A model generated the notes under the pieces. That model was not told the origin of the DNA. It made no database searches and saw only the letters and a list, made by a program, of their open reading frames with translations. 64,000 bases of DNA from a virus (taxonomy: Duplodnaviria; Caudoviricetes). Within the stretch, counting starts at the first letter, position 1, and each line of letters opens with the position of its first letter. A program made the position numbers and the translations under genes. This document shows, one piece after another, positions 38,121 to 56,160 of this stretch. The stretch is from the IMG/VR virus record IMGVR_UViG_3300027374_000478, positions 64,001 to 128,000 of that record; one strand, given 5' to 3'.

Positions 38121-38322
38121 AGTATTCCTAAAGAGTAAAACGATAGGATAGTGGTTGTGGTTCTCAGCCGTTGTATCAGAATTTTTTTGATACATAAATG
38201 GGTATTTTACCCGATGAATTAAATCTTTTATTGCCATAGATGGCAAAAATATAAATACAGAAAGGATACGAATGTTCACTGGTGAAGAAAGCTGCGCAGC
38301 TACTAAGTAATGGTGAACAAAA

Positions 38323-38967
38323 ATTAAGGTATTAGAATTATTCGCAGGTACAAGAAGTATTGGTAAAGCATTTGAAGCAAGAGGTCATAAAGTTTTCAGT
38401 GTTGAATGGAATAAAGATTTTGAAAACATCGACCTATATGAAGATATTAGTAAAGTTACAGCACAAGACATTTTAAACAAGTTTGGAAAACCTGATGTTA
38501 TTTGGGCGAGTCCTGACTGTACGACTTTCAGCATTGCGGCAATTAGTCATCACAGAAGAAAGAATCCAGAAACAGGAAGTCTTGAACCTATCAGTGATTA
38601 TGCAAAGTTCTGTGATAAAGTAGATCAACATGTTATTTCGCTTATCAAAGAATTAAATCCTACATACTACTTCATCGAAAATCCCCGTGGTGGCATGAGA
38701 AAGATGTCTTGGATGCAAGACTTACCACGATATACGGTTACATATTGTCAGTATGGCGATGAAAGAATGAAACCTACTGATATCTGGACTAATCATCCAA
38801 ATCCTAAGTTTAAACCCATGTGTAAGAATGGCGATCCATGTCATGTATCTGCTCCAAGGGGAGCTAAAACAGGAACACAGGGACTTAAAGGTAGTATTGA
38901 ACGAAGTAAAATTCCATCAGCATTATGTGAGCATATTGTTGATATTTGTGAAAAAAACATTAGGTAA
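38323..38967 (+). CDS. short C5 cytosine methyltransferase-like protein (no ATG; probable ATT start)
   Basis: frame upstream of the listed ORF reads KVLELFAGTRSIG (motif I)...WASPDCTTFS (IV)...IENP (VI). Confidence 0.8.
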   Translation: MKVLELFAGTRSIGKAFEARGHKVFSVEWNKDFENIDLYEDISKVTAQDILNKFGKPDVIWASPDCTTFSIAAISHHRRKNPETGSLEPISDYAKFCDKVDQHVISLIKELNPTYYFIENPRGGMRKMSWMQDLPRYTVTYCQYGDERMKPTDIWTNHPNPKFKPMCKNGDPCHVSAPRGAKTGTQGLKGSIERSKIPSALCEHIVDICEKNIR

Positions 38968-39081
38968 TATTTCAACGGGAGTCATGAACCCATGAAAGAT
39001 TCACAAAATAACAAATTAGAGAAAGGATATAACAAGTAATTCCGGATAAATTAGCGTTGCAACGCCTTGTAGATAAGGCAT

Positions 39082-40470
39082 TTGGAAAGTAATAATAAAA
39101 GATTTAGTTTATCAAAAAATTGGAAACTGGTAAATTTCTGTGAGTTTGATAAGTATGCGACTAAAAGCTATTGTGCAATTCACAGAGTAGATGAGAATTT
39201 AAACCTTGGTGATATTACTGAGGTTGATGGAACAAAATTAGAAGATTTTAATATGATTTGTGGAGGGAGTCCTTGTCAGGATTTCAGCGTAGCTGGTAAA
39301 CAAAAGGGTTCTGTGTGGACTTGTAATGGTTGTGGACATGAATATAACCCTCTAACGGTACATTGGAGTCAGAGAGATAAATGTCCTAATTGTGGAAGTA
39401 ATAATATTGAAAAAACAAGATCGTCACTTCTTGTTGAGTATTTGAGAGTAATCCGAGGAAATAAACCTAATTTTGGAATGTATGAAAATGTTAAAAATAT
39501 TGTGGGTAAACAATTCAGAGATACTACATTCAAATTATTTGAAGATGAGTTACATGAGTATGGCTACAATACATATTGGAAAGTGCTGAACGCAAAAGAT
39601 TATGGTATTCCTCAAAACAGAGAGCGAGTATATCTGATCTTTATCAAGAAAGACTTAGACAACGGTAAGTTTGTGTTCCCTAGAGAATTTGATAATGGAA
39701 TTCGTTTGAAAGATGTTTTGGAAGATGAGGTAGATGAAAAATATTATATTTTTGATGATAAAGTGCAGAGATTTTTAACAAATCTAAATACTAATACTTC
39801 TTTACTATATGATCCGTGTCAGGTAAAAAGAGAGGGTAAATCAAGGGAATATAATGATTACTGTCCAACTCTCACTTCAAGAGACTATAAAGATCCCAGA
39901 TTGGTAAATGAAAATGTAGTAAAACAAGTCGGAAATATTTCTGATTGCAATGGGAATTGGAAGAATCCACAAGTGGGGAGAATTTATGATCCCGATGGTT
40001 GTTCACCGACATTAAATACTTGTGGCGGAGGTAGCCATGAACCTAAGATTGTTCAGGTTGGTAATGTAAATCCATCTGGTAAAGGTATGAATGGTAATGT
40101 ATTTTCAGAAGATGGACTAGCACCAACTTTAACAACAAATAAAGGTGAAGGAAATAAAATTTTAACAGGTATTAGAATCCGCAAACTAACGCCAAAAGAA
40201 ACTTTCAGGCTTATGGGATTTTCTGATTCGGCATATGACGCTGCAAGCAAAGTTGTTAGCAACAGCCAGCTTTATAAACAATCAGGGAATTCAATAGTAG
40301 TAGATGTTTTATATTACATATTAGTTGAGTTATATAAGGCAATGCCGTACCTATTTGATGATTTAAAACTGAGCAGTTTCTTCTCAGGTATTGGTGCATT
40401 TGAGGCTAGTTTGGACAGATTGTATGAAAGCATTAATACTGGAAATTTTACCAAACCACAAGCGGAGTAA
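39082..40470 (+). CDS. C5 DNA cytosine methyltransferase, circularly permuted, with zinc-ribbon insert
   Basis: GGSPCQDFS (IV), ENV (VI), PQNRER (VIII), RKLTPKE..RLMGF (IX), KQSGNS (X), then SFFSGIGAFE (I) at the C-terminus. Confidence 0.9.
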   Translation: MESNNKRFSLSKNWKLVNFCEFDKYATKSYCAIHRVDENLNLGDITEVDGTKLEDFNMICGGSPCQDFSVAGKQKGSVWTCNGCGHEYNPLTVHWSQRDKCPNCGSNNIEKTRSSLLVEYLRVIRGNKPNFGMYENVKNIVGKQFRDTTFKLFEDELHEYGYNTYWKVLNAKDYGIPQNRERVYLIFIKKDLDNGKFVFPREFDNGIRLKDVLEDEVDEKYYIFDDKVQRFLTNLNTNTSLLYDPCQVKREGKSREYNDYCPTLTSRDYKDPRLVNENVVKQVGNISDCNGNWKNPQVGRIYDPDGCSPTLNTCGGGSHEPKIVQVGNVNPSGKGMNGNVFSEDGLAPTLTTNKGEGNKILTGIRIRKLTPKETFRLMGFSDSAYDAASKVVSNSQLYKQSGNSIVVDVLYYILVELYKAMPYLFDDLKLSSFFSGIGAFEASLDRLYESINTGNFTKPQAE

Positions 40471-41042
40471 ATTCTGCTTGTGGCGAAGAAGTAATATGTA
40501 TTGATGATACACAAGGTTTTGATGGTGCTAGATTTTACAAAGATTATGTTCCAACATTGCGAAGTCAAAGAAGCGGATTAAAAGTTGCTTGTATTAAAGA
40601 TAAAGAATATTTAGATATTTGTATCAACGATAGAGGAAAGGTAAATAAAAAACCACAGATAACATATGGGCATTCGCCAACACTTATTTCTGAATTTCAT
40701 GGGAATTTACCAAAAGTTGTTGAGGTAAGAGGTGCCGCTATGCGTGGTAGGTACAATTCAGATGGAAAAACAGAACAGAAAATAGAAGTAAGAGATGATG
40801 AGTTGTCTAATGCAATTACAACTGTACAGAAAGACTCGTTAATTGTAGAAAATAAGTCTTGGTTCGAAAAGAAATATACAGAGTTTTATGAGAAATATGG
40901 TTATATTCCAGAATATTTTGTTCCATATAACGGAACTGAATGTAAAGATTATGCATCGACTTTAACTGCAAATTCTAATACAAGTCCAACACATTCTGGG
41001 ACGATTTTAATTATGGAGATTGGCAAAGAAAAGAAGTCTTAA
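40449..41042 (+). CDS. MTase variable-region (TRD-like) module, probably a -1 frameshift extension of the upstream MTase
   Basis: PTL/STL repeats ('VPTLRS','SPTLIS','NAITTVQKD','ASTLTA'); no SD; open from a slippery site at 40443. Confidence 0.65.
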   Translation, partial: YQTTSGVNSACGEEVICIDDTQGFDGARFYKDYVPTLRSQRSGLKVACIKDKEYLDICINDRGKVNKKPQITYGHSPTLISEFHGNLPKVVEVRGAAMRGRYNSDGKTEQKIEVRDDELSNAITTVQKDSLIVENKSWFEKKYTEFYEKYGYIPEYFVPYNGTECKDYASTLTANSNTSPTHSGTILIMEIGKEKKS

Positions 41043-41062
41043 AACCCACGTTTCAAAGGAAG

Positions 41063-41761
41063 GTGATTAATATAAATATTGAGCATAATTGGATAGAAAC
41101 ATTTATAACAGAAAGTAAGAAAAAAGAATTAGAAATAAGAAGGAAAATTGATAAACAAAAAACAATCATGAAAACAATTACTAATGAAGAATCTAGCGTT
41201 GTGGATGATTTTTGCATGACTTTACAAAGACGTTCTTCGAGTTGGGGTGATTTTATTGTAAGTTTGGATAAAGTAAATGAAGCATTATTAGCTGGAATAC
41301 CATTAAGAGAAATAATTTATAACTATTTAGAAAATAAAAAATGTTCAAGTTATGGAGGAGAGAATATGATGGATCATTATGTCGGAGCATTTAATACAGA
41401 AATGTTACCAATTGAAAAAATTTTAACATGTAGAGAGAAAGATATTAGAATTGTAGATGTAAATCTAATTGTGCCAGACAAGGTTGTAGAAGTTACATTT
41501 GCAGATGGAACAAAAGAGAAATCTGTATGTAGAGAACCTGATACATTCAGTTTGGAATCTGCAATTTCTATCTGTATTTCCAAGAAGATTATGGGTGGAT
41601 CATCTGCTTATAATAATGCGATTAGACGTGGTATGAAGGTCTATGAGAAGAAGTTAGAGTATGCAAAGAATAACACAAATCTTCCAGATAATCCAGACTA
41701 CAAGCGGATCAATGAATTTGTAGCAAGTGTGAATGAGAGAGTTGTGAAAGGAGAAGTATGA
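41063..41761 (+). CDS. hypothetical protein, possibly chimeric
   Basis: 232 aa; internal SD GGAGG before MMDHY; C-terminal segment resembles the tail of phage nucleotidyltransferases. Confidence 0.55.
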   Translation: MININIEHNWIETFITESKKKELEIRRKIDKQKTIMKTITNEESSVVDDFCMTLQRRSSSWGDFIVSLDKVNEALLAGIPLREIIYNYLENKKCSSYGGENMMDHYVGAFNTEMLPIEKILTCREKDIRIVDVNLIVPDKVVEVTFADGTKEKSVCREPDTFSLESAISICISKKIMGGSSAYNNAIRRGMKVYEKKLEYAKNNTNLPDNPDYKRINEFVASVNERVVKGEV

Positions 41762-42471
41762 AGAGACAGATTAGAAGAAATGTTTTTGAAACAAATTCGA
41801 GTTCTATGCATAGTTTAACAGTTATGAAGAGAGATGATAAATATACTCCAGAAGAATTTTTAGACGGAATATATTTATGTAAAGACGAAGATACAGGCGA
41901 GGAATCTTGTGTTTGGGAGCCTTGGGATCACGATTTGGAATTTGGTAGGAGTCCATTTAGGGCTTTGGGAACATTTACAGATAAATGGTTGTATGCGTGT
42001 GCTTCGTTGGTTCATGACTATAATGATGATGTTTATAAAGAACTCGTTGCACTTGCATTGAAATATATACCAGGTCTTAAAAAGATCAAACTGCCAATGG
42101 ACAGTGATAGTATTGCAGATAAAAATGATGAAGAACATAAAAACGATGACTATTATCAGAAGTATGGTAAGACAGAAGATGAACTAAAAGAATATTTATC
42201 ACAGAAAGAAAAGGATTGGGGTTTTGAACTTGAGTATTGGAAATCTTCAAATGGCTGGTGGCATTATGACAAACCATGTACAGGATATGTTGATGAAGAT
42301 ATTCTAAGTGGATTTTTAGAGCATGAAGGTATTTCTCTTGAAGAATATCTTATAAATAAGAAATATGTCGTCATTCAAGACGGTGATGAATATTGCTATT
42401 GGGACAATATGAAGCAAACAGGGCTAGTAAATATGGATATGATTGATCATGAATATCCAAGAGAGGATTAA
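41758..42471 (+). CDS. acidic protein with N-terminal 'RRNVFETNSSSMHSL' motif
   Basis: motif shared with the next two genes. Confidence 0.8.
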   Translation: MKRQIRRNVFETNSSSMHSLTVMKRDDKYTPEEFLDGIYLCKDEDTGEESCVWEPWDHDLEFGRSPFRALGTFTDKWLYACASLVHDYNDDVYKELVALALKYIPGLKKIKLPMDSDSIADKNDEEHKNDDYYQKYGKTEDELKEYLSQKEKDWGFELEYWKSSNGWWHYDKPCTGYVDEDILSGFLEHEGISLEEYLINKKYVVIQDGDEYCYWDNMKQTGLVNMDMIDHEYPRED

Positions 42472-42478
42472 GGGATCA

Positions 42479-42925
42479 ATGAAAAGGAAGATTAGAAAAG
42501 GTGTATTTGAAACAAATTCGTCTTCGGTTCACAGTTTGGTTATTTCTAATGAGGGCAGGGAACCGAGTGAATTCAAACTGAATAAGGATGGAGAAATAGA
42601 AATTGATTTTGGACAGTTTGGAAAAGACAAACGTATTTATACATCACAATATGACAAACTTTCCTATCTGATTACTTGTTTATATTATCTGTCAGGATAT
42701 GATATATCTGATATTTATGACAAGTGGGAATTTAGAGAAATTCAGGATGCTATTTGTAAATATACAGGTGCGACAGGAATTAAGATTTTAGGAGAACAGG
42801 AACCAGAGATTGATCATCAGTCGCAGCCCTATGGCAATATTGAAATTGTCAATGTTTATGATGAGGATGCGGTTATCAATTTTGTATTCAATAAGTATGT
42901 GTCATTAAAAACAGATTGTGATTAA
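42479..42925 (+). CDS. protein with N-terminal 'RKGVFETNSSSVHSL' motif
   Basis: shared motif; 'IDHQS' near the C-terminus. Confidence 0.8.
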   Translation: MKRKIRKGVFETNSSSVHSLVISNEGREPSEFKLNKDGEIEIDFGQFGKDKRIYTSQYDKLSYLITCLYYLSGYDISDIYDKWEFREIQDAICKYTGATGIKILGEQEPEIDHQSQPYGNIEIVNVYDEDAVINFVFNKYVSLKTDCD

Positions 42926-42941
42926 GGAGGAAGTTTATTTT

Positions 42942-43313
42942 ATGAAGAGGGAAGTAAGACGTGGAGTATTCGAGACAAATAGTAGTTCAGTACATAGTTT
43001 AACAATGTGTTCTGGAGAAGAGTACAAAAAGTGGGAGAACGGCGAAGTATTATATTGGGAAGAGGAAAATAAATTTGGAACCAAAGAAGAAATCATTGAA
43101 GAAATGAAAAAAATGAAGTGGCATGATGGAACACCACGATATGAAAAGGTTAATTGGGAAAATGAGGATACAGTAGATGATATTTTTTCAGATGAAGGAA
43201 TCAAAACTTGTGAAAAATATTTTGAAAATGATTGGTATGAGACATATGAGAAAAAGTATACCACTCAAAACGGTGAAGAAGTTGTAGCATTTGGATATTA
43301 CGGTCACGATTAA
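42942..43313 (+). CDS. protein with N-terminal 'RRGVFETNSSSVHSL' motif
   Basis: shared motif; SD AAGGAGG. Confidence 0.8.
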   Translation: MKREVRRGVFETNSSSVHSLTMCSGEEYKKWENGEVLYWEEENKFGTKEEIIEEMKKMKWHDGTPRYEKVNWENEDTVDDIFSDEGIKTCEKYFENDWYETYEKKYTTQNGEEVVAFGYYGHD

Positions 43314-43328
43314 GAAAGGATGGTAGAA

Positions 43329-44222
43329 ATGAATCTGTTGGGAATTTATAAGAATGGGAATTTTACCACTAAGTTATTCTCAGATGGAACCAAGATTAGA
43401 GAAACAGAAGATGATGAGTTTATCCCTGATTTTGCAGAGAATATGGATATCAAGATAAGTAATTATTGTGATATGGGATGTAATTTCTGTCATGAGGGTA
43501 GCACAAAGAATGGTAAACATGGAGATATTCTGAACCAGAAGTTTATTGAAACTTTACATCCGTATCAGGAGGTTGCGCTTGGTGGTGGTGATGCAACGAG
43601 CCATCCAGATCTGATTCCATTTTTACATAAGCTGAAGGATAGGAAAGCCGTTGTAAATATGACCGTAAACCAGCGACACTTTGAACAGAAACAGGAATTG
43701 ATTAAGAAGTTGGTTGATGAAAAACTAATATATGGTCTTGGTGTATCTCTTGTAAATCCAACAGATGAATTTATATCACTAATTCAGCAATATCCAAATG
43801 CAGTTATACATGTGATTAACGGTATTCTCAAGCCTTCAGACGTAGAAATGTTATTTGATAAGAATTTGAAGATGCTTATCCTTGGATATAAGCAGTTAAG
43901 GCGTGGTGGTGAATGGTATAGTGAGGATCACGAAAATATCATTATTAAGCAAATGTGGCTGAAAGAAAATCTTGGTGGAATCATTGAGCGTTTCAAAGTA
44001 GTGAGTTTCGATAATCTGGCTATTGATCAGCTTGAAGTTAAGAGATTAATGAGCCAGGAAGAGGGGGATGAGTTTTACATGGGGGATGATGGCAGCATGA
44101 CATATTATATTGATATGGTTGAACAGAAATTTGCAAGAAGTTCTACTGCCGATTTTGATAAGAGATATGATTTATTGGACTCTGTAGATGAAATGTTCAA
44201 AAAGATAGTATCTGAACAATAA
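43329..44222 (+). CDS. radical SAM enzyme
   Basis: CDMGCNFC (CxxxCxxC), 'ALGGG...HPD', 'NMTVN'. Confidence 0.9.
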   Translation: MNLLGIYKNGNFTTKLFSDGTKIRETEDDEFIPDFAENMDIKISNYCDMGCNFCHEGSTKNGKHGDILNQKFIETLHPYQEVALGGGDATSHPDLIPFLHKLKDRKAVVNMTVNQRHFEQKQELIKKLVDEKLIYGLGVSLVNPTDEFISLIQQYPNAVIHVINGILKPSDVEMLFDKNLKMLILGYKQLRRGGEWYSEDHENIIIKQMWLKENLGGIIERFKVVSFDNLAIDQLEVKRLMSQEEGDEFYMGDDGSMTYYIDMVEQKFARSSTADFDKRYDLLDSVDEMFKKIVSEQ

Positions 44223-44226
44223 AAAT

Positions 44227-44274
44227 ATACCATATATAGTGTTCGGTTGGATGAATGGTTGCTATATATGGTAT
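44227..44274. promoter_or_regulatory. tandem NrdR-box-like sites
   Basis: ataccatatatagtgt and ttgctatatatggtat, 32 bp apart. Confidence 0.65.
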
Positions 44275-44319
44275 AGAAATGAAATCGAGATTTTAAGGCA
44301 GAAAAAGAGGTGATAGATA

Positions 44320-45438: not shown

Positions 45439-45869
45439 TTACAAAAGGAAATGAGATTAGGCTGATTAAGCCGATGGGAGTATTTGATAATATCGGAGAA
45501 GTTTGCGAAGTGACAGATGTATCAGAAGATGGCGTTATCAGTTTTAAATTTGGTGGCTGTCATCTTGGGTGTATGTCTTATAACGAATTTGAAAAGTATT
45601 TTGAATTAGTAGAGAAGGAAGTATCAGAAGAAGAAAGTGATGAAGATGCTGATTCTATGGCAGAAAATAAAGAAGTGTATGACTTAATTGAGTGGTGTAA
45701 AGAGAATGATAAACCATTTTATCTAAAGCTATATTTAAATGTACTGGAAAAGAGAAATGGTATTACACAGTCAATTCTTGGAATGTATAAAAATAGGTTA
45801 TGTTTGGTGCAGTTTAAGAATAAAACTTTCAAGGATTCAGATTTTAGTGGATTAAAAATTATGCTTTAA
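45435..45869 (+). CDS. hypothetical protein (3' end overlaps the retron RT stop)
   Basis: 144 aa ORF, SD AAAGGA. Confidence 0.6.
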   Translation: MITKGNEIRLIKPMGVFDNIGEVCEVTDVSEDGVISFKFGGCHLGCMSYNEFEKYFELVEKEVSEEESDEDADSMAENKEVYDLIEWCKENDKPFYLKLYLNVLEKRNGITQSILGMYKNRLCLVQFKNKTFKDSDFSGLKIML

Positions 45870-46842
45870 TAGTAGCATTGCGAACATGATTATAAATATT
45901 ACTGAATTTTGTTGGTTCAGTTTGTTGTGCGGCCACTATTAAACCCTGAAGTCTCTTTTGAGAGTGTTCGTCATTTGGATTATTCTTATAATTACGCAAT
46001 TCATTCATTACTTTATGGCTTAATGAGTTAGGAATATTGAGGTTCCCATTAGGAGAAATGATAGTTCCAGTAACAGATTTTGGATAAGTATTTGTATAGT
46101 ATTTTACTTTTGATCTTGAAAGCCTATATAAATATTTAGAAATAATATTATAAATTATTTCTTTGTGCTTGTGTGAAATTTCGTGTTGTGAAGAAAAGGT
46201 AATATCATCTACATATATAGACATAATTATCTCATTTTTATCACAAAAATTTTGTAGTTCATCAAACATATTATGATTCGCTAAATAAGATAGAATTTGA
46301 CTTGCAGGAGAACCGGAAATTAAATGATTTGTAGTTTTTATTCCCTTAGATAAAAGGAATTGCTCAATAGGTTCTGATTCCTGAATATCACATAAAGTTA
46401 AGTCAATAGTAACAAAATTAGTGAGAATATTGGCTATATCAGAAGGTGTTTTTAAATCAACTTTAAAAAAATTATACACTGTTTCACGAGTTATACATGG
46501 GAAAAATGCTGTTAAATCTATTTTAAAAAGAAAATTGCAGTTTTGGTGTATAGCAGCATTATCAACATAAGATTTTCCTTTTATACCAGAGAATGCATTT
46601 GAAGGAACTTCTATTTTATTTAATTCGCATTTTATGTTTTTCTGAATTTTTTTAAGAGAATCCGAAGGAGCTTCAATTAAACGAGGTTTTGGATTTGCTT
46701 GTATATATGGATTAATCTGCTTTGCAACAAAATTTTGATTTAGATATTCTTTTGTAGGAACTTTTAAAAGTATCATTAAATATTTTTTGGTGGATAATTT
46801 ATACAAATTTGATTTTGTTGGATCTATCATAAATAACCTCAA
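45859..46842 (-). CDS. retron-type reverse transcriptase
   Basis: NAAIH (retron region X, NAxxH), KIDLTAFF, SGSPASQ, YVDD, VTG (region Y). Confidence 0.9.
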   Translation of the reverse strand: MRLFMIDPTKSNLYKLSTKKYLMILLKVPTKEYLNQNFVAKQINPYIQANPKPRLIEAPSDSLKKIQKNIKCELNKIEVPSNAFSGIKGKSYVDNAAIHQNCNFLFKIDLTAFFPCITRETVYNFFKVDLKTPSDIANILTNFVTIDLTLCDIQESEPIEQFLLSKGIKTTNHLISGSPASQILSYLANHNMFDELQNFCDKNEIIMSIYVDDITFSSQHEISHKHKEIIYNIISKYLYRLSRSKVKYYTNTYPKSVTGTIISPNGNLNIPNSLSHKVMNELRNYKNNPNDEHSQKRLQGLIVAAQQTEPTKFSNIYNHVRNATIKA

Positions 46843-46862
46843 TATTCAAATAAATGCTGGTG

Positions 46863-47042: not shown

Positions 47043-47117
47043 TGGCTTCACCTCCTTGTTATTATATTGGCTCCATAATGGAGTCTCCCCAGTCCTCAAA
47101 TAACAAAGAGATATGAT

Positions 47118-47350
47118 TATAGCGTATATCTACCTTACACCAGCAAAATTCTTCTCCCCGTAAAAGCACTTTATTATACTTCTCTTGAAAGAAGTATGTA
47201 AAGAGCATGTGATGACCTGTGCTGTCGGGGAGGATGGCACAGGATGATACCGGTGGTACAGAGCCTGTCCATCCTAAAAAATGCTCATAAATCATTGAGC
47301 ATCCATTCGTTATATAAAATAACGAACCAAACGGGAGTAAATCTGCTATA
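47118..47350 (-). ncRNA. putative retron msr-msd RNA
   Basis: terminal complementarity (tatagc/gctata; ctccccgt/acgggag) enclosing hairpins ttcgttat/ataacgaa, atgctca/tgagcat, cctgtgc/gcacagg, atacttct/agaagtat. Confidence 0.7.
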
Positions 47351-47367
47351 TAACACTGATACCTATA

Positions 47368-47396
47368 ACTATATACCAATTTGTACCAAATGTCAA
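47368..47396 (-). promoter_or_regulatory. SigA promoter of the retron operon
   Basis: minus-strand TTGACA-17-TATAGT; a LexA-like AAAC-N4-GTTC lies at 47406-47417. Confidence 0.7.
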
Positions 47397-47645
47397 TGAA
47401 AAAACAAACATAAGTTCTACAAAATTTTTATAAAGAGGTGACAAATTATGTGATAAAAAAGGATAAAAACAATTATAGATAAGAAATATAATATACACTT
47501 GGCTATCTACCAGAGTGTTCAATCACTCAATCAGATAAATTTTGTTGTTTTCATTTTAACCTCTTTTTTTTGGAATGTTCAAGTTTGTGGCTTGAGCATT
47601 CTGATAGGTAGTCAAGTGTGGAAAGGAATATATGGAGGTGGTATA

Positions 47646-48410: not shown

Positions 48411-48460
48411 GCATAACCCAAGGAAAAATCTGTTTTATCACAAGTTTGGAGGTGATATAA

Positions 48461-48706
48461 ATAATTACAAGAGAAGTAGATATTGAAATGAATCCACGAG
48501 AATTAGTTGAAGAATTTTGGAACATGGACTCAGAACAGCAAGCGAAGTTTTTTAATGAATTAGCAAATATTATTGAAGAAAATCAAGGTAGAGGTGTAAT
48601 GCAATTAGATTACATATCATTTGAGCCTTCATTGTATCCATATGGAGCAAGACTAATCAGTATGTTGGCTGAACGAGTAAAAGAAGGAAATAGAAAATCT
48701 AAATAA
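48461..48706 (+). CDS. hypothetical protein (probable ATA start)
   Basis: SD GGAGGTG then in-frame ATA ATT ACA... Confidence 0.55.
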   Translation: MITREVDIEMNPRELVEEFWNMDSEQQAKFFNELANIIEENQGRGVMQLDYISFEPSLYPYGARLISMLAERVKEGNRKSK

Positions 48707-48766
48707 CACGGAAAGGAATAAAGGTGCTGCTGCCGTGAGATGATCATACCTTTCTGGGTGAAGAAA

Positions 48767-49485
48767 ATAAAATACGTTGGAAGTAAAAACAGAATAAGCA
48801 AGTATATTGTACCTATTATTCAAAAGTGTATTGACGAAAATAATATAAAAATATATTATGAGCCGTTTGTTGGTGGGGCCAATATGATTGACAAGATTAA
48901 ATGTGAAAATCGTATTGGTAATGATATACATAAAGAATTGATTGCAATGTGGAATGAAATTCAGAATGGTTGGGAAATACCATTGCATATTTCAGAAGAA
49001 GAATATAATAAAGTTAGAAATAGTAAAAAAGATTATCCAGATTATTATGTAGGTCTTATAGGGTTTAATGCAACTTTTGGGTCTAAATATTTTGGTGGGT
49101 ATGCAAGAGGATTTAAAGCAGACAAAGTTACACCAAGAGACATCCCAAATGAAGCATTAAGAAACTTATCAGAACAAATTCCCAATATACAAAATATTAA
49201 ATTTTTATGTAGCGATTATAGAAACAATGAGTATGCTAATTTACGGGATGCAGTTATTTATTGTGATCCTCCGTATCAAGGTACAACTAAATATGCTACA
49301 GATTCATTTGATTATGATATGTTTTGGGATTGGTGTAGAAAAATGAGTAAAGAAAATTGGCTTTTGTTAGTGAATATAATGCTCCTTCGGATTTTGAATG
49401 TATTTGGTGCAAAAATGTTACCACAAGTTTAAAAGTTCATGAACATGAAAGCAGAGTAGAGAAATTATTCACATATAAGAAATAG
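48767..49485 (+). pseudogene. Dam/D12-class DNA adenine methyltransferase with a frameshift near the C-terminus
   Basis: KYVGSK, YEPFVGG, YCDPPY; the expected 'FVSEYNAP.DF.CIW...VEKLF' tail is in the -1 frame from ~49360. Confidence 0.75.
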
Positions 49486-49680
49486 AAATATTCCTTGAAA
49501 AGCCAATTTCATCGGTAAAATTATCATCTGTATAGAATGTAAAAGATAGTAACCAAAAGAAATTATATTTTTATTGGCAGTTGCAAATGTTAATAAAAAT
49601 CAGCAATTCAGCAAACTATGAAAGGAGTTATACAAGTAATTCTAGGTAAAATGTATGCGCATACCTTGTAAGTACAATAA

Positions 49681-50724
49681 TTGCAAGGAAAAGATAAAAA
49701 TATAAATTCAAAATCTGCTGATCTGATGGAGTTAATCAGTAATGCTCCACAAAATCAAACAATAGGAGATAATTTAGTAAGAGCGTGGTCAAAGATAAAC
49801 AACGATAAATACAAGAAAATTGTATGTGCTTTATCTGGCGGATCAGACAGTGATGTAATGGCAGATATTATTTGGCAATGTGATAAAGATGGTAAGGTAG
49901 AATATGTTTGGTTTGATACTGGTTTAGAATATCAGGCTACAAAAAACCATCTGAACTTGTTAAGAGAGAAGTATAATATAGAAATTAAACCATATAAAGC
50001 AATCGTTCCTATCCCTACAAGTTGTAAAAAATATGGACAACCATTTGTTTCAAAAAATGCTTCTGAAATGATTGATAGATTACAATGTCATGGATTCCAA
50101 TGGGAAGATGAACCATTAGACATATTATTGCAAAGATATTGTGAATGGAATACAAAGAAACAAGATTGGGTTGGATGTAAAGGTGCGTTAATGTGGTGGT
50201 GTAATGCAAATGAATCAGTCCAATTTAATATTGCATATAACAAATATCTAAAGGAGTTCATGATTCAAAATCCTCCAAAGTTCAAAATTTCTTCAAAGTG
50301 TTGTAAATATGCAAAGAAAGATGTATTACATAAGCTTGTTGCAAATGAAGGATATGATTTAAATGTATTTGGGGTTAGAAGGGCTGAAGGAGGTATTAGG
50401 CAAACAGCATATAAATCCTGTTTTGATGAAAATGGAGAAGGCTATGATAATTACAGACCTTTGTTTTGGTACACAAATTCAGACAAAGAAGATTATGAAA
50501 ACCATTATGGAATTGTACATAGTAAGTGTTATACGGAATATGGGTTAGAGAGAACGGGTTGTGCTGGTTGCCCATTTGGAAGAGATTTTGAGCAGGAGTT
50601 GGAAGTTATAGAGAAGTATGAACCAAAGCTATTTGTTGCTGTGAATAATATTTTTGGTGACAGTTATGAGTACACAAGAAAGTATAGAGAATTCTGTAAG
50701 GAGATGGACGAGAAGAAAAAATAA
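49681..50724 (+). CDS. PAPS reductase family (PP-loop) protein with Fe-S cysteines
   Basis: SGGSDS, FDTGLEY, KCC, GVRRAEG, RTGCAGCPF. Confidence 0.85.
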   Translation: MQGKDKNINSKSADLMELISNAPQNQTIGDNLVRAWSKINNDKYKKIVCALSGGSDSDVMADIIWQCDKDGKVEYVWFDTGLEYQATKNHLNLLREKYNIEIKPYKAIVPIPTSCKKYGQPFVSKNASEMIDRLQCHGFQWEDEPLDILLQRYCEWNTKKQDWVGCKGALMWWCNANESVQFNIAYNKYLKEFMIQNPPKFKISSKCCKYAKKDVLHKLVANEGYDLNVFGVRRAEGGIRQTAYKSCFDENGEGYDNYRPLFWYTNSDKEDYENHYGIVHSKCYTEYGLERTGCAGCPFGRDFEQELEVIEKYEPKLFVAVNNIFGDSYEYTRKYREFCKEMDEKKK

Positions 50725-50872
50725 ATAAGTAAGGTAAGTGGCAATGAAAATTTCGATTCATTGTATGTCAAAAAGTAGAAGCAAAATAAGCATATGCAAA
50801 AATTAGAATAATAAAACCAGGAGGAAATGAGGTTTCTGCGCAGAATAAATCATGATTTACTCCTAAATAAGA

Positions 50873-51754
50873 ATGGAATATCAAAAGAAAATCAAATGTG
50901 AATTATATAGGGACTCTATGCAGAATTATAAGAAGTATGCAATTCCACCTGCTCAGTTAATTATTGCAGATGTTCCATATAATGTAGGAAATAATTTTTA
51001 CGGTTCAAATCCGATGTGGTACAACGGAGGAGACAACAAAAAAGGTGAAAGTAAATTAGCTGGTAAAGCAGCTTTCAATTCTGATTTTAATTTTAATCTA
51101 TATGAATATTTTCATTTTTGTTCCAAGATGCTTAAAAAAGATGATACTAGACCTGTTCCGAGAGGACGCAGTAGTGACTCACCTTGTATGATTGTATTCT
51201 GTTCTTTTGAACAGATTCAGACACTTATTAAGGCGGCAGAAAGGCATGGGTTCATTCATTACATACCACTAATCTTTTGCAAGAATTATAGTCCACAGGT
51301 ACTCAAAGCTAACATGAGGGTTGTGGGAGCTGCTGAATACGCACTCCTATTATATAGAGATAAATTGCCAAAATTCAGAAATGGTCTTCAAGTTGATGAA
51401 AATGGTAAGAACATTCCAGGAACAGGACATATGATCTTTAACTGGTTTGATGGTGGAGATGAGGATGAGTGGGGAAGAACTTATCATAGCAACAGTACAT
51501 ATATGATGTGGGAAAAAGATAAGTCTAAGGAAGTTCCCAAAATCCATCCGGCTCAGAAGCCAGTAGCAGTTCTGAAACGTTTGATTGAGATATTTACTGA
51601 TCCTGGTGATGTGGTTATTGATCCATGTGCAGGTTCTGGTACAACACTAAGAGCAGCTTATGAACTTGGCAGAAGTGCTTTCGGTTTTGAAATTGACCGT
51701 AATTTCTACCAGAGAGCAAAAGATGAAATGTTGAATTTTGCAAAAGAAGAGTAG
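50873..51754 (+). CDS. N4/N6 DNA methyltransferase (beta class)
   Basis: ADVPY, HPAQKP, DPCAGSGTT, GFEID. Confidence 0.9.
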   Translation: MEYQKKIKCELYRDSMQNYKKYAIPPAQLIIADVPYNVGNNFYGSNPMWYNGGDNKKGESKLAGKAAFNSDFNFNLYEYFHFCSKMLKKDDTRPVPRGRSSDSPCMIVFCSFEQIQTLIKAAERHGFIHYIPLIFCKNYSPQVLKANMRVVGAAEYALLLYRDKLPKFRNGLQVDENGKNIPGTGHMIFNWFDGGDEDEWGRTYHSNSTYMMWEKDKSKEVPKIHPAQKPVAVLKRLIEIFTDPGDVVIDPCAGSGTTLRAAYELGRSAFGFEIDRNFYQRAKDEMLNFAKEE

Positions 51755-51955
51755 ATACATATAGACTTAAAACATCGGTTTCATTGGGAGTTATCAGTTC
51801 ATAACTGGTAGTTCTCATTCGGGAGATAGTTGCCTTACCAATTCTAACGACTCCCAACAAACGGTAGGAATGGCGTTTACGACAGGCGGTAGTGTAGCTC
51901 CTTCCTTGTACGAGAACAAGGGCAAACTACATTAAAGAATATTTGGAGGTATAAA

Positions 51956-52174
51956 ATGGATAAGAGGGAAATAGATGGTGTAGAAATTAATGGTAAAAGT
52001 ATTATTACTTCATTAAAAATTATTAAGCAGGTTTGCAAGGACAACCTTAATGAGAAAGGAAATTGTGGTAATTGTCCATTTTTTGTAGACCAAAGTGATT
52101 GCTGTGGAATCGAAAATATGACACCTGATAATTGGAAGATTTTAGAATATACAAAGTTTCAAGCATTAGGATAA
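51956..52174 (+). CDS. small Cys-rich hypothetical protein
   Basis: 72 aa, SD GGAGGT. Confidence 0.6.
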   Translation: MDKREIDGVEINGKSIITSLKIIKQVCKDNLNEKGNCGNCPFFVDQSDCCGIENMTPDNWKILEYTKFQALG

Positions 52175-52206
52175 ATTTTTCATTTCAAAGGAAGGAGAAA
52201 CAAGTA

Positions 52207-52449
52207 ATGAAGGTTAATCTACACAGAGTTAATTATGATGGTTCAGAGAATAGTAATGGAAATTGGTGGGTATGGAAAGAGATATGTGATAAATGTGGAA
52301 AAACAGTTTCAGACGAAGATATATTACACTCGTTTCCTGGAGATGAATCAGAATTAGATTTTTGTGTAGATTGTTATCATTATTTATTGGATAATGGTAT
52401 TTCATACGAACAGGCTATTGGTTTGTATGGTAAAAACTCAAACGGTTAA
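52207..52449 (+). CDS. hypothetical zinc-finger protein
   Basis: SD AAGGAG; CDKC...CVDC. Confidence 0.6.
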   Translation: MKVNLHRVNYDGSENSNGNWWVWKEICDKCGKTVSDEDILHSFPGDESELDFCVDCYHYLLDNGISYEQAIGLYGKNSNG

Positions 52450-52494
52450 AACAACTCTTTCATTGGGAAAAATTTAAAGAAATGAGGTCATAAA

Positions 52495-53595
52495 ATGATT
52501 AAGAAAATTGATAAGAAGAACAAATTTATATCTATGTTTAATCCCAATACAGGATTTTACATGAGAAGTGGAGTTATTGAAGATGGCAAAGACACAAGCA
52601 AAGATCCTTTTATGACTTCATTTCCAGAATTATTAGACATAGGAGTAATGGGACATTGTGTTCATGGAGACAGTGGTCTATGTATTAAATCTGGCGTTCA
52701 GTGTTATCAGAATGGTTTAAAGACAAAATATCCAAATATGTCTTTTGAAAATTTCAAGAGAATTGTGGACGAGTGTAAGGGTAAAACTTTTCAGTTTGCT
52801 TTAGGTGGTAGAGGTGATGTGGATCAGCATGAAGATTTTGAAAAGATTCTAAGATATAGTAGAGAAAATGGTATCGTGCCAAACTTTACATCATCTGGTC
52901 TTGGATTTACTGTAGAGATTGTTTCACTTTGTAAAGAGCTTTGTGGAGCTGTTGCAATCAGTTGGTATCGTCAGGAACATACATATAAAGCAATTCAGAT
53001 GTTGTTAGACGCAGGAATTAAAACTAATATTCATTATGTGTTAGGTAATAATTCTATTGATGAAGCAATTAAGAGATTAAAAAGCAATGATTTCCCTAAA
53101 GGCATCAATGCGATAATTTTTTTGTTGCATAAGCCGGTAGGATTAGGGCAGGAAAATAATGTGTTAGATATAGAAGATAAAAGAGTAAGAGAATTCTTTC
53201 ATATTATTGATACTCAGCAGTTCGATTTCAAAATTGGTTTTGACTCTTGTACAGTTCCAGCACTTATCAATATGACTTCAAATATAAATGAGGATAGTTT
53301 TGATACTTGTGAAGGTGGTAGATGGTCTGCTTATATTACATCAGATATGAAAATGCTACCTTGTAGCTTTGATAATCAAGATATGAGATGGGCATATGAT
53401 ATTTCAAATGATACAGTACAGAACGCCTGGAACAGTAAACAGTTTGAGGATTTTAGAGATCATTTTAGAAATTCATGTAGTGGTTGTAGTAGGCAGTGTG
53501 AATGTAGGGGAGGTTGTCCTATTAGAAGACAGATAGTTTTATGTGACAGGAAGGAGAAAGATTTATATGAAAGTACGCAGCGATTTTGTGACTAA
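52495..53595 (+). CDS. radical SAM/SPASM domain enzyme with an atypical cluster motif
   Basis: C-x7-C-x6-CY, ALGGRGD, NFTSSG; SPASM 'CEGG...LPC...C..C...C.C.GGCP'. Confidence 0.85.
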   Translation: MIKKIDKKNKFISMFNPNTGFYMRSGVIEDGKDTSKDPFMTSFPELLDIGVMGHCVHGDSGLCIKSGVQCYQNGLKTKYPNMSFENFKRIVDECKGKTFQFALGGRGDVDQHEDFEKILRYSRENGIVPNFTSSGLGFTVEIVSLCKELCGAVAISWYRQEHTYKAIQMLLDAGIKTNIHYVLGNNSIDEAIKRLKSNDFPKGINAIIFLLHKPVGLGQENNVLDIEDKRVREFFHIIDTQQFDFKIGFDSCTVPALINMTSNINEDSFDTCEGGRWSAYITSDMKMLPCSFDNQDMRWAYDISNDTVQNAWNSKQFEDFRDHFRNSCSGCSRQCECRGGCPIRRQIVLCDRKEKDLYESTQRFCD

Positions 53596-53905
53596 TTCAT
53601 CAAGTAGCAGTTTTATAATTGCAAAAAGAGAAAATTGCACTATTGATGAAATAAGAAATAATTTAAATGAGAATAAAGAAAATATTAAATACATATTGGA
53701 AATGTTTGATATGGATACTGATGGTAAATCAGTTGAAAAATTCATAAATGATTTATCCAATCAGTTATTTAGAGAACCATCAGACTTGCATCTTGGAGAT
53801 TGGATTGCATCAGCAGTTGAATATTGCAATGAAGATGATGAGTTTGGAGCGTTTATGTATGATTATGGATATAAACTTGGCACAGAAAACTTTAAGGTGG
53901 GATAA
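53567..53905 (+). CDS. protein with N-terminal 'KVRSDFVTNSSSSSF' motif
   Basis: motif shared with the next gene. Confidence 0.8.
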   Translation: MKVRSDFVTNSSSSSFIIAKRENCTIDEIRNNLNENKENIKYILEMFDMDTDGKSVEKFINDLSNQLFREPSDLHLGDWIASAVEYCNEDDEFGAFMYDYGYKLGTENFKVG

Positions 53906-53910
53906 AAAAT

Positions 53911-54507
53911 ATGAAGATAAGAACTGATTTTGTTACAAATAGCAGTAGTTCTAGTTTCGTTTGCGAAATATGTGGTCGTACTGAAAGTGGGTGGGATATG
54001 TGTTTGTCAGATACAGAAATGATGGAATGTGTTAATGGTCATACATTTTGTTGTGATGAATCTCTTCCAAAACCTACAAAAGAAGAAATGGTTAAAATGA
54101 TTATAGAGAACGAGTGGAACAAAGACGCTTGGAGTTCTGATTTAAAAGACTACAAAGATTATTCGGAAGATGAATTACTTGTAATGGAAGAAGATGAGTT
54201 ATGGGGATTTTGCTGTGAAGATAGTGGATGCTATGAAGTTCCTGAGTGTGTATGCCCTATTTGCCAATTTATTGAATACTCAGAATATGATCTTAGTGCT
54301 TACTTATTAAAGCAATATGGTGTACCCAGAGAGGATGTATTTGCAGAGGTTAAGAAACTGAATAAAAGAAGAAAGAAATTATATGAAAATGAATATATTA
54401 CACATGTTTGTAAGCAGTTCAATTTGAATCCAACAGAAATCGTTGCAGGGTGGAAAGAAAAATTTGGTACTTATGAGAAATTTAAAGTGTGGTTAAATGA
54501 AAAATAG
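53911..54507 (+). CDS. Cys-rich protein with N-terminal 'KIRTDFVTNSSSSSF' motif
   Basis: shared motif; CEIC, C..GH..C, CPIC. Confidence 0.8.
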   Translation: MKIRTDFVTNSSSSSFVCEICGRTESGWDMCLSDTEMMECVNGHTFCCDESLPKPTKEEMVKMIIENEWNKDAWSSDLKDYKDYSEDELLVMEEDELWGFCCEDSGCYEVPECVCPICQFIEYSEYDLSAYLLKQYGVPREDVFAEVKKLNKRRKKLYENEYITHVCKQFNLNPTEIVAGWKEKFGTYEKFKVWLNEK

Positions 54508-54548
54508 TCTTGAAATTTTGCTTTTATTGGATGAGGAAGGAGGAAATA

Positions 54549-54908
54549 TTGGATAGAGAAAAATTTATTTCTCAGCTACCTATAACTGAGAAAAATATAG
54601 ACAAGCAATGGATTATGAGTGTAATGAAACAGTCTGTAGATTCCAATTTACATGATGGTAATCCAAGAGGGCATAGAAACTTAATTATTGTCATGGAAGA
54701 ACTCGCTGAGTTAAGTAAAGAAATTTCAAAAGAACTTAGAGGGAAAGGCGATCAATATAATATTCTTGAAGAATTGGCTGATGTGCAGCTTAGTATTTAT
54801 TATGTTCAAGAAGTTTGTGGTGTCAACAATGACGACTTACATAAAGCAATGAATATTAAAATGAGAAGACTTGAGGAAGTTTTGAATAAAAAAGGGAAGT
54901 ATCAATAA
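54549..54908 (+). CDS. MazG-like nucleotide pyrophosphohydrolase
   Basis: EELAEL...EELADV. Confidence 0.75.
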   Translation: MDREKFISQLPITEKNIDKQWIMSVMKQSVDSNLHDGNPRGHRNLIIVMEELAELSKEISKELRGKGDQYNILEELADVQLSIYYVQEVCGVNNDDLHKAMNIKMRRLEEVLNKKGKYQ

Positions 54909-54984
54909 AGAACAAAGAATAAAAAAACATGGGAGGCAAAGAGGTTTGTCATGACAGAAAAGTGCGCTTTACTCCTAAATAATA

Positions 54985-56160
54985 TTGAAAATAGCAATTA
55001 TAGATGCGGATCTGATAGGTAGGGACAAGCACAGGTTTCCTAATCTAGTTTGTATGAAACTATCAGGTTATTATAAAGAACTTGGTGCTGAAGTTGAATT
55101 GAAAATGGATTATGAAGAATTAGCAGCATGTGATAAAGTATTCATTTCCAAAGTGTTTACTGACACACCAATAGATGAAGAGATTTTGAAACTTTCAAAT
55201 GTAGAATATGGCGATACAGGATTCTTTTATGACAAAGCTCCGAAACTTCCTAATGAAGTAGAACATCATATGCCGGATTATAATTTGTATGATGAGTGGG
55301 TGAATGACAGATTAAACGAAGGTGGTAAGAGAAAGGATTTTACATATTATCTTGATTATTCAATTGGCTTTATGAGTCGTGGATGCATCAGACAATGTAG
55401 TTTCTGTGTGAATAAGAATTATAAATCATGTGAAGTTCACAGTCATTTATCTGAGTTTCTGGATGAGAGCAGACCATATATCTGTTTGTTGGATGACAAT
55501 GTACTGGCTTGCAAGGACTGGAGAAATATATTTGAAGAACTTATTGCGACAGGTAAGAAATTTCAGTTCAAACAAGGTTGTGACGAGAGACTTCTTACAG
55601 ATGAAAAATGTGAGGTTCTGTTTGAGAGATCAAAGTGGATAGGGGACAGGATATTTGCATTTGACAATATTAAAGATAGAGAAGTAATAGAAAGAAAGTT
55701 ACAGATGATAAGGAGACACACTAATGATCAGATTAAATTCTATACATTTTGTGCGTACAATCATGATAACATAGGTGTTTATGATGAGGAGTTTTGGGTT
55801 AAGGATATAGAAGATCTGTTTGAGCGAATCAAAATTCTAATGACTTATGGGTGCTTGCCTTATGTAATGAGATTCAAAGATTATGTTCTGAGTCCATATA
55901 AAGGGATTTATATCAATGTTGCGAGTTGGTGTAATCAGCCAAGTCTATTTCGTAAGATGAGTTTTGCTGAGTACAGTATGGCGAGAGGTATGAGTAATGA
56001 AAACTACAAAAAATATAAAATGGATTTTGATTTATACTTAGCAGATGGCAATAAGAAAGGTTCGTCATGGAGATATTACGAAGAATTCACACGCAAATAT
56101 CCAGAGATTGCAGAGAAGTATTTTCATATGAAGTGGAATTATTCAAATAGGAACAGTTAA
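54985..56160 (+). CDS. radical SAM enzyme (phage-type)
   Basis: SRGCIRQCSFC, LLDDN, N-terminal 'FPNL..MKLS.YYK'. Confidence 0.85.
   Translation: MKIAIIDADLIGRDKHRFPNLVCMKLSGYYKELGAEVELKMDYEELAACDKVFISKVFTDTPIDEEILKLSNVEYGDTGFFYDKAPKLPNEVEHHMPDYNLYDEWVNDRLNEGGKRKDFTYYLDYSIGFMSRGCIRQCSFCVNKNYKSCEVHSHLSEFLDESRPYICLLDDNVLACKDWRNIFEELIATGKKFQFKQGCDERLLTDEKCEVLFERSKWIGDRIFAFDNIKDREVIERKLQMIRRHTNDQIKFYTFCAYNHDNIGVYDEEFWVKDIEDLFERIKILMTYGCLPYVMRFKDYVLSPYKGIYINVASWCNQPSLFRKMSFAEYSMARGMSNENYKKYKMDFDLYLADGNKKGSSWRYYEEFTRKYPEIAEKYFHMKWNYSNRNS

Follow-up and report, generated by a model that had tools for sequence, protein, structure and literature searches.

Structured leaders with exchangeable palindromes in front of DNA-modification genes of a large prophage and its relatives

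The window analyzed here is a stretch of 64,000 nucleotides (nt), bases 64001-128000 of the 159,091-bp IMG/VR provirus record IMGVR_UViG_3300027374_000478, and the subject of this report is a set of structured leaders located in front of its genes for DNA methyltransferases, a PAPS-reductase-like protein (PAPS, 3'-phosphoadenosine-5'-phosphosulfate), and a radical-SAM-family protein (SAM, S-adenosylmethionine). The element is 45-55 nt in size, and the sole Shine-Dalgarno (SD) sequence of each leader gene is located 35-55 nt before the start codon, against a norm of 5-10 nt in this prophage, in which almost all genes carry GGAGG or GAAAGGA at that distance and the SD-start spacing of normal genes reaches 12 nt. 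A total of six leaders had been described in a sequence-only reading of the window. Upon re-reading of the sequence, all six were found in place with the stems and palindromes quoted for them, and five of the six start codons are weak as described (ATT, TTG, GTG, TTG, ATG, and TTG for leaders 1 to 6), while the set proved to be larger, a seventh leader being located at 37601-43 and an eighth at genome positions 144108-144196. The leaders and the genes behind them are as follows, with positions in the window unless otherwise indicated.

37601-37643, + strand: seventh leader, previously unlisted; SD AGGTGGTGA at 37601-09, odd palindrome CGATTATTAATCG at 37618-30, ATG at 37641.
37641-38120, + strand: phrog_11619 methyltransferase of 159 amino acids (aa) (PHROG, E 3e-48).
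38260-38325, + strand: leader 1; SD GAAAGGA at 38260-66, stem TGTTCAC 38273-79 / GTGAACA 38313-19, AGCTGCGCAGCT at 38290-301, ATT at 38323.
38323-38967, + strand: gene 1, small DNA methyltransferase of about 215 aa with ATT start (Pfam DNA_methylase, E 1e-6; phrog_757, E 1e-44).
39021-39084, + strand: leader 2; SD GAAAGGA at 39021-27, stem ACAAG 39032-36 / CTTGT 39066-70, TCCGGA at 39041-46, GCGTTGCAACGC at 39054-65, TTG at 39082.
39082-40470, + strand: gene 2, C5 cytosine methyltransferase (Pfam; alignment with the Bacillus phage 1_ICo-2020 methyltransferase).
48710-48760, + strand: leader 3; SD GGAAAGGA at 48710-17, stem AAAGGT 48720-25 / ACCTTT 48748-53, ATGATCAT at 48740-47, GTG at 48758.
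48758-49432, + strand: gene 3, D12-class (Dam-like) N6-adenine methyltransferase (Pfam MethyltransfD12, E 1e-19).
49620-49683, + strand: leader 4; SD GAAAGGAG at 49620-27, stem TACAAG 49631-36 / CTTGTA 49665-70, GTATGCGCATAC at 49653-64, TTG at 49681.
49681-50724, + strand: gene 4, PAPS-reductase-like (Pfam PAPS_reduct; phrog_424, E 2e-26).
50819-50875, + strand: leader 5, of the GAGGTTT scaffold; AGGAGG at 50819-24, TTCTGCGCAGAA at 50834-45, TAAATCATGATTTA at 50846-59, CTCCT at 50860-64, ATG at 50873.
50873-51754, + strand: gene 5, N4/N6 (beta-class) DNA methyltransferase (Pfam N6_N4_Mtase, E 5e-28).
54931-54987, + strand: leader 6; GGGAGG at 54931-36, TGTCATGACA at 54947-56, AAAGTGCGCTTT at 54959-70, CTCCT at 54972-76, TTG at 54985.
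54985-56160, + strand: gene 6, radical-SAM-family (phrog_9298, E 1e-48; no Pfam match).
Genome 144108-144196, outside the window: eighth leader, before a second D12 methyltransferase gene.

A leader is present before each of the eight genes for methyltransferases, PAPS-reductase-like, and phrog_9298 proteins that were seen in this genome, and two other radical-SAM genes of the same genome (43320 and 52495) have ordinary SDs. The homology proposed within the pairs 39021/49620 and 50819/54931 was borne out, the shared strings occurring at these sites alone in the genome: ACAAGTAATTC...CCTTGTA followed by 11 nt and TTG is unique to leaders 2 and 4, and GAGGTTT...TTACTCCTAAATAA followed by 2 nt and the start codon is unique to leaders 5 and 6. 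The swap of palindromes within the latter pair was also seen, leader 6 being the scaffold of leader 5 with its two palindromes, hereafter referred to as dyads, in reverse order. Leader 1, in which the helix adjoins the SD, holds an upstream open reading frame (ORF) of 12 codons in the gene's own frame (ATG 38272 to TAA 38308); near-identical copies of leader 2 are present at loci L010, L019, and L032; and the seventh leader has no proximal SD and a weak predicted fold. The prophage has a G+C content of 32% with strong strand skew, and its perfect GC-containing palindromes amount to 35 versus about 67 expected genome-wide, or 11 versus about 28 for those of at least 12 bp. Because palindromes of the latter group are rare in the genome and yet 4 of the 11 fall within the leaders (about 380 nt in total), the leaders are considered to be beyond chance. 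No convincing promoter was identified on the + strand between 37.4 and 56.4 kb, where promoter-like sites are fewer than in shuffled sequences, and with no promoter-like site beside the leaders, the leader genes must therefore be located inside a long operon.

The same plan was found far outside this prophage. The N4/N6 methyltransferase of gene 5 has 545 relatives in viral contigs, and the leaders that precede those in IMG/VR follow this plan in several scaffolds of unrelated sequence, with the common layout of SD, one or two perfect palindromes of 8-14 bp, a 3' arm pairing with or beside the SD, 8-10 nt, and the start codon. The module is present in hundreds of related Lachnospiraceae phage contigs. 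By a gene-blind search, in which the scaffold ends alone were specified (GAGGTTT...TTTACTCC, later AAGGAGTAAGAGGTTTG), 98 distinct leaders were identified, and an ORF follows in 90 of the 91 assessable ones; in 76 of the 90 scaffold matches, 8-10 nt separate the end of the 3' arm from the start. After clustering and annotation of the downstream proteins of a total of 133 gene-blind instances, 122 were found to precede genes for DNA methyltransferases (69, of at least eight families), PAPS-reductase-like proteins (49), or radical-SAM proteins (4), upholding the association of the leaders with DNA-modifying genes that had been proposed from the window. The remaining 11 encode double-zinc-ribbon (6), sigma-like (2), Xis/HTH_17 (1), and unannotated (2) proteins. 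Such carriers other than enzymes are found at L199, L222, L043 (203-aa protein), L376 (168 aa), and L245 (255 aa), and the double-zinc-ribbon, sigma-factor-like, and Xis/HTH_17 proteins among them are candidates for regulators or for new members of a modification regulon. Homologues of gene 6 in other phages mostly carry an ordinary SD and some carry a leader, and the module is therefore portable rather than bound to one gene.

Portability of this kind could also be expected if the leaders were modules of DNA recombination, with the 50-nt scaffold as the exchange junction and the palindromes as break or crossover sites. The same scaffold and dyad pair indeed occur before unrelated genes with both flanks variable, the neighborhoods are mosaic with homology beginning just upstream of the SD, and the cassette of the large family carries a three-frame stop, TAACTAACTAA, at its head. 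The orientation and the register to the start codon, however, are strictly fixed, the helix covaries and carries G.U pairs on the sense strand (see below), the junctions lie outside the palindromes, and the exchange may be incidental to what the module does, altogether making this explanation very improbable. As to the cassette itself, TAACTAACTAA opens the commonest methyltransferase cassette (L034-L112) about 20 nt upstream of the SD with a stop in all three frames, and in mosaic phages the homology begins at or just past this sequence. A scaffold derived from target-site duplication, as in miniature inverted-repeat transposable elements, was rejected, since "GAG" flanks were found in some copies only.

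The element common to all scaffolds is a closing RNA helix, of which the position is conserved and the sequence is not. At least 10 scaffold variants carry covarying pairs of arms, including GAAAGGAA/TTCCTTTT, AGGAG/CTCCT, TGGAG/CTCCA, AGGAGCA/TGCTCCT, and AAGGAGCC/GGCTTCTT, and further GAAAGGAG(G)CCGG/CCGGCTCTTTC and TAGGAG(G)TAAAG/CTTTACTCCTA. Even homologous genes are preceded by distinct helices, as between TGTTCAC/GTGAACA of leader 1 and ATAGTCTC/GAGACTAT of L489, where the dyads, CTCATGAG and GGTGCGCACC, also differ from that of leader 1. Cognate 5' and 3' arms gave a mean complementarity score of 16.2, compared with 14.0 for non-cognate arms (permutation p 1e-4); covariation, the absence of which would have spoken against a cis-regulatory RNA according to the sequence-only reading, is thus present in the closing helix across scaffold families. 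In minimum-energy folds, the closing helix was formed in all six foreign leaders folded.

Two classes of leader were distinguished by what the helix takes in. In the SD-pairing class (50819, 54931, genome 144108, and most foreign scaffolds), the helix consists of the SD and a cis-encoded anti-SD, which stays complementary as the SD flanks change: in leader 5, AGGAG 50819-23 pairs with CTCCT 50860-64, and leader 6 is closed by GGGAG/CTCCT, its AAAGTGCGCTTT having as counterpart in the relative L113 the perfect AAAGTGCACTTT. In the loop-out class (38260, 39021, 49620, one fold of 48710, L489, and L113:2036), the helix begins a few nt past the SD. Leader 3 may adopt either form, since its 3' arm ACCTTTCT can pair both with AAAGGT 48720-25, in which case the SD is unpaired, and with the SD; the alternative pairing of the 3' CTCCT/CCTT with the SD, as noticed before, was thus seen in leaders 5 and 6 and in one of the two pairings of leader 3. 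A competing hairpin in leader 4, CCUUGUAA/UUGCAAGG, would mask the start codon, so that mutually exclusive pairings would expose or hide the SD or the start in leaders 3 and 4. The effective SD-start spacing with the insert folded is about 4-8 nt in leaders 1 and 3 and in L489, and 12-15 nt in other leaders if the SD core alone goes to the ribosome. The end of the 3' arm is located at a distance from the start that is canonical for an SD, and folding of the insert would therefore leave a split ribosome-binding site.

The nearest parallel in geometry is the split ribosome-binding site of phage T4 genes 38 and 25, in which, as reported by Gold and co-workers and by Nivinskas et al. in 1999, a hairpin between the SD and the AUG is said to restore the spacing. 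The likeness, a far-upstream SD with the intervening RNA looped out by a helix, suits 38260, 48710, and L489; the T4 hairpins are, however, gene-specific and without variable palindromes, whereas most leaders here pair the SD itself and leaders 2 and 4 keep a spacing of 13-15 nt.

The sequence-only reading had proposed a cis-regulatory RNA responsive to SAM or S-adenosylhomocysteine (SAH). The first part stood, in that the leaders of DNA-modification genes carry a covarying helix that sequesters the SD or bridges it to the start, and the second part was not supported. Many of the controlled genes use SAM, as would be expected for a SAM- or SAH-binding riboswitch, but no Rfam family was detected at the gathering score, at which the window gave one tRNA only, or at E values up to 10, the permissive scan of leader 5 yielding chance matches of E at least 1. 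In addition, the element is short, the largest single class of controlled genes is PAPS-reductase-like, and the interior is replaced wholesale between close relatives, so that there is no conserved ligand pocket. A riboswitch is thus considered to be very unlikely as an explanation.

Coupling to a short upstream ORF is also improbable. According to this explanation, the distal SD drives a leader ORF and the gene is translated by termination and reinitiation. A start codon indeed lies 7-10 nt past the SD in most leaders, with TTG in GAGGTTTG, ATG 38272 in leader 1, and TTG TGC GCA... in the TGT-NNNN-ACA family as candidates, and in several leaders a stop is located at or just before the main start (ATGA overlaps; TAG 8 nt upstream in the large family). 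The distance of the stop from the main start is, however, scattered between -33 and +169 nt, the reading frame of some leader ORFs continues into the gene, the SD of the scaffold GGAGCCAGCC... is not followed by a start codon, and the encoded peptides are not conserved. At L255, L445, L442, and L504, the TTG in GAGGTTTG is in frame with the downstream gene without an intervening stop, and the whole leader could be translated there as an N-terminal extension of 14-16 aa. Translational bypass or read-through from the in-frame upstream ATGs of leaders 1, 2, and 4 was rejected, since the frames are inconsistent in leaders 5 and 6 and the seemingly absent motif I of gene 2 is explained otherwise (see below).

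Close relatives share a constant scaffold and differ by complete replacement of the one or two dyads within it. The TGT-NNNN-ACA cassette is represented by 61 copies, located before methyltransferase genes of 80-100% identity, with GCGC as the core in 37, CGCG in 20, CCGG in 3, and CACG in 1; when counted on the tree of the 61 genes, the core changed at least 8-15 times, with one intermediate. Leaders of the GAGGTTT and GGAGCC scaffolds carry a pair of dyads between the SD and the start codon. In the former, the first slot is occupied by GCGGCCGC, GGTCGACC, GCTGGCCAGC, GTCGGCCGAC, GGTATACC, TCCCGGGA, GTCCGGAC, GAAGCTTC, and others, and the second slot, with AAAG/TAAA arms around it, by GAATTC, GAGCTC, GACGTC, GATATC, AAGCTT, or GCCGGC, and also by TCATGA, TCCGGA, CTATAG, CAGCTG, ATGCAT, or TGTACA. 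Apart from the SD, GAGGTTT, and TTACTCC, no part of this scaffold is invariant, and no sequence is kept from one scaffold to another. In this phage and its large relatives, the dyads TGCGCA and TCATGA reappear in scaffolds that differ from one another. Since identical dyad pairs occur before unrelated genes, and up to 13 dyad combinations before a single protein family, the dyads are lineage-specific and not gene-specific. A single dyad set per genome was ruled out by two phage genomes that each carry two different cores, CGCG and GCGC in G002 and CCGG and GCGC in G003. Gene content associated with GAGCTC and GACGTC leaders showed no difference beyond p 0.02, uncorrected. Alternating sequence of the Z-DNA type was also considered and rejected, since GTGCGCAC alone fits.

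The symmetry of the dyads reaches their center. Complementarity of the two adjacent columns at the center was found in 46 of 49 aligned sequences, with a covariation score of 0.40 against 0.125 in shuffled alignments, none of 500 shuffles scoring as high. Because a hairpin cannot pair its central bases, the constraint must be the two-fold symmetry of a duplex, which points to recognition of the dyads on double-stranded DNA or on an RNA stem mimicking a half-site. Among imperfect variants, G.U and A.C on the sense strand stand at about 8 to 2, with the stepwise path GCTGGCCAGC > GCTGGCCGGC > GCCGGCCGGC; the excess of G.U fits with RNA pairing of the arms, and three CCGG > CTGG changes fit equally with the deamination of methylated cytosine.

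The marginal stability of the conserved helix and the G.U intermediates in the arms could also be accounted for by a purely cis-acting insert that fixes the translation of toxic enzymes at a low level, the palindromes being filler hairpins turned over by host restriction. Restriction pressure is implied by the strong genome-wide avoidance of palindromes, and no regulator was found. Filler would, however, favor stable GNRA or UUCG loops without self-complementarity, whereas none of the dyad loops is of these types and almost all centers are palindromic. Loss of the SD would suffice to make a weak site, and the scaffold is conserved before unrelated genes. On this balance, a purely cis-acting insert is unlikely.

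The sequence-only reading had offered methylation-sensitive DNA sites as its alternative, and sensing of methylation or restriction sites on DNA is the main rival of the regulatory reading set out below, with which it is not mutually exclusive. According to this view, the dyads are sites of phage or host methyltransferases or of restriction enzymes, methylation of which feeds back on the expression of modification genes, and the helix merely keeps the ribosome-binding site working. The proposal gains weight from the dyads being perfectly symmetric through the center, like Type II recognition sites, from the switching of cores among GCGC, CGCG, CCGG, GGCC, and many 6-bp sites in close relatives, and from the controlled genes themselves, DNA methyltransferases and other modification enzymes. 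The three CCGG > CTGG variants are independent and agree with 5-methylcytosine deamination. In the whole genome (G000), GGCC (0.18), CGCG (0.24), and GATC (0.50) are strongly avoided, and the hexamers GCATGC, GGATCC, and CAGCTG occur 0, 1, and 2 times against 10, 14, and 21 expected, whereas the leader hexamers TGCGCA, TCATGA, TGATCA, TTGCAA, and TCCGGA are not avoided, unlike many other palindromic hexamers. GATC is present before the Dam-like gene, as had been pointed out, and in no other leader of this phage; this is not general, since the D12 methyltransferase gene at L281 has GTCGAC and CTATAG dyads.

Against methylation sensing, no link was found between the dyad core and the downstream methyltransferase: near-identical genes at L102 and L103 follow CGCG and GCGC, and the 19-aa indel of the N4/N6 methyltransferase, a possible target-recognition region, is unlinked to the core. 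A C5 methyltransferase is present in one of the five phage genomes checked and absent from the complete phages with GCGC or CGCG cores. In the flanks, the leader hexamers of a lineage's own are as frequent as those of other lineages (observed/expected 0.65 and 0.71). Nearly every 6-bp palindrome is a known restriction site, making the resemblance uninformative, and no methylation reader is known at such a position. Methylation sensing by itself is thus regarded as doubtful. Methyltransferases are known to autoregulate through sites in their own control regions, as in M.EcoRII, M.MspI, CfrBI, SsoII, and the C-protein boxes. The likeness lies in the palindromic DNA sites at the 5' end of methyltransferase genes and in the limitation of dosage, but the known sites are in promoters and match the specificity of the enzyme itself or a fixed operator, whereas the dyads here lie behind the SD, do not track the downstream enzyme, and are also found before PAPS-reductase-like and radical-SAM genes.

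The reading preferred here, with a probability of about one half, is that the leaders act as a modular translational operator, located between cistrons, for a regulon of DNA-modification genes with an anti-restriction role, with the dyads read by a symmetric factor. Folding of the insert would bring the SD and the start to about 6-15 nt of each other, a usable spacing for a split ribosome-binding site, and the cis anti-SD or competing hairpins would keep translation of the toxic enzymes low until the balance shifts. The looped-out dyads would be the recognition site of a two-fold-symmetric, sequence-specific factor, which, by analogy with helix-turn-helix (HTH) regulators of the Aca2 type, may read the dyad on duplex DNA, on the stem of an RNA hairpin, or on both.

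Among known systems, Aca2, together with Aca1, is the nearest worked-out case for comparison. Both are HTH dimers acting on anti-CRISPR operons, with motifs also located between genes within operons (PMC13551039), and the Aca2 dimer has as its targets inverted repeats on DNA and, in the 5' untranslated region, a pair of hairpins next to the ribosome-binding site (PMC13551039). Shared features are the control of phage anti-defence genes that are harmful if over-expressed, lineage-specific motifs, their position between genes within operons, and two small hairpins beside the ribosome-binding site, an arrangement found here in the GAGGTTT and GGAGCC scaffolds; that one protein reads both dyad DNA and RNA hairpin, as Aca2 does, is proposed for the present leaders by analogy. 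The differences are that no Aca-like gene was identified here (none of 10 neighboring window proteins has a Pfam HTH domain, not every small ORF being covered), that no matching promoter inverted repeat was seen, the palindrome list of the genome containing no copy of the leader dyads elsewhere, that the dyads are far more variable and are located downstream of the SD, ahead of the start, instead of overlapping or preceding the SD, and that the controlled genes are DNA-modification enzymes.

In biology, the nearest case is com-mom of phage Mu, in which the zinc-finger protein Com opens a translation-inhibiting structure of mom mRNA (PMC6483171). In both, a toxic DNA-modification gene would be held by mRNA structure over the initiation region, and in Mu the trans-acting Com is required for release. 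Mu has one gene with one fixed stem-loop, however, whereas a portable scaffold with swappable dyads serves many gene families here, and no Com-like zinc-finger ORF upstream of and overlapping the modification gene was found before any leader.

Several observations weigh against the translational operator. No trans-acting factor was found among the neighboring proteins, and a homologue of the double-zinc-ribbon protein, the gene of which is preceded by the leader in other phages, is missing from this genome. With two different cores each in G002 and G003, one regulator per phage is too simple. The TGT-NNNN-ACA family varies in the central 4 bp with the flanks fixed, as is rarely the case for HTH operators. 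The folding energies are modest and not significant against shuffled sequences (z 0 to -2 for window leaders and to -2.4 for foreign leaders), the support for the helix being therefore comparative and not thermodynamic. The effective spacing is long (13-15 nt) in leaders 2 and 4, and in the SD-sequestering class the ribosome would have to gain access to a start without an SD.

As a tentative combination of the two views, the leader may be a composite DNA-RNA switch, in which dyads that are targets of methyltransferases or restriction proteins gate the split ribosome-binding site by occupancy or methylation and are rewritten as phages change hosts. If true, this switch would be a new kind of sensor, connecting the DNA methylation state to the translation of anti-restriction genes. 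Orphan methyltransferases and other DNA-modification enzymes are the main means of escape from restriction for temperate gut phages, and we know of little on the control of their dosage and timing in phages outside Mu mom. The module is compact and portable, and hypervariable symmetric cores within a constant scaffold are an unusual evolutionary pattern, hinting at a sequence-specific partner. The outcome is informative either way, whether an Aca2-like regulator binding RNA and DNA or dyads acting as a methylation sensor, and with its specificity of about 92% for DNA-modification genes, the module can flag new modification or anti-defence genes, among which the genes for the double-zinc-ribbon, sigma-like, and unannotated proteins behind it are candidates. 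No description of such a leader was found in literature searches.

The start codons of the leader genes were examined together with the coding sequences. The frame of gene 1 has no ATG, GTG, or TTG before 38695, ATT 38323 being the only candidate start, and this ATT is kept in the L489 homologue despite the different leader there. Gene 2 is circularly permuted, with motif I (FFSGIGAFE) at the C-terminus and a HypA/zinc-ribbon-like insert after motif IV; the permutation explains the seeming absence of motif I, and the TTG start at 39082 therefore stands. Gene 3 likely starts at GTG 48758, an ATG at 48740 being located inside the loop of leader 3. Near-cognate start codons appear, from the sequences at hand, to be used regularly in this phage group. 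A PcfJ-like gene (44317) has an ATA start directly after TAG, 3 nt behind AGAGGTGA, and several homologues of the radical-SAM gene at loci L116, L120, L121, L134, and L157 start with ATT or ATA behind good SDs. The second D12 methyltransferase gene (genome 144172-144260, equivalent to window coordinates 80172-80260, outside the window) shows a -1 frameshift at CAAGGGGTAAAC, with MTQKLEIPCSYQG in one frame and GKQRLAKQIV in the next, which could reflect phase switching in a G tract, programmed frameshifting, or an error of assembly.

No match to the region was detected among GenBank phages by nucleotide search. A 14-mer scan of bacterial genomes identified three genuine prophage copies of one leader scaffold, two of them in metagenome-assembled genomes (MAGs) of Lachnospiraceae, the remaining matches being mostly chance; these MAG copies are consistent with the large prophage belonging to gut-bacterial Lachnospiraceae. 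The sole minus-strand unit of the region (45862-46842 with 47065-47379) encodes a 327-aa reverse transcriptase (Pfam RVT_1, E 2e-15) and is preceded by two near-consensus promoters (sites 47396-47368 and 47202-47173); the enzyme could belong to a retron, or be of the abortive-infection (Abi) or diversity-generating-retroelement (DGR) type, within the accessory operon. Elsewhere in the window, a tRNA-Met gene is preceded, at about 200 nt, by a near-consensus promoter (TTGACA...TATAAT), the TTGACA box of which lies between two copies of the palindrome AACGTACGTT (28963-28972 and 28994-29003), and the copies look like a pair of operators.

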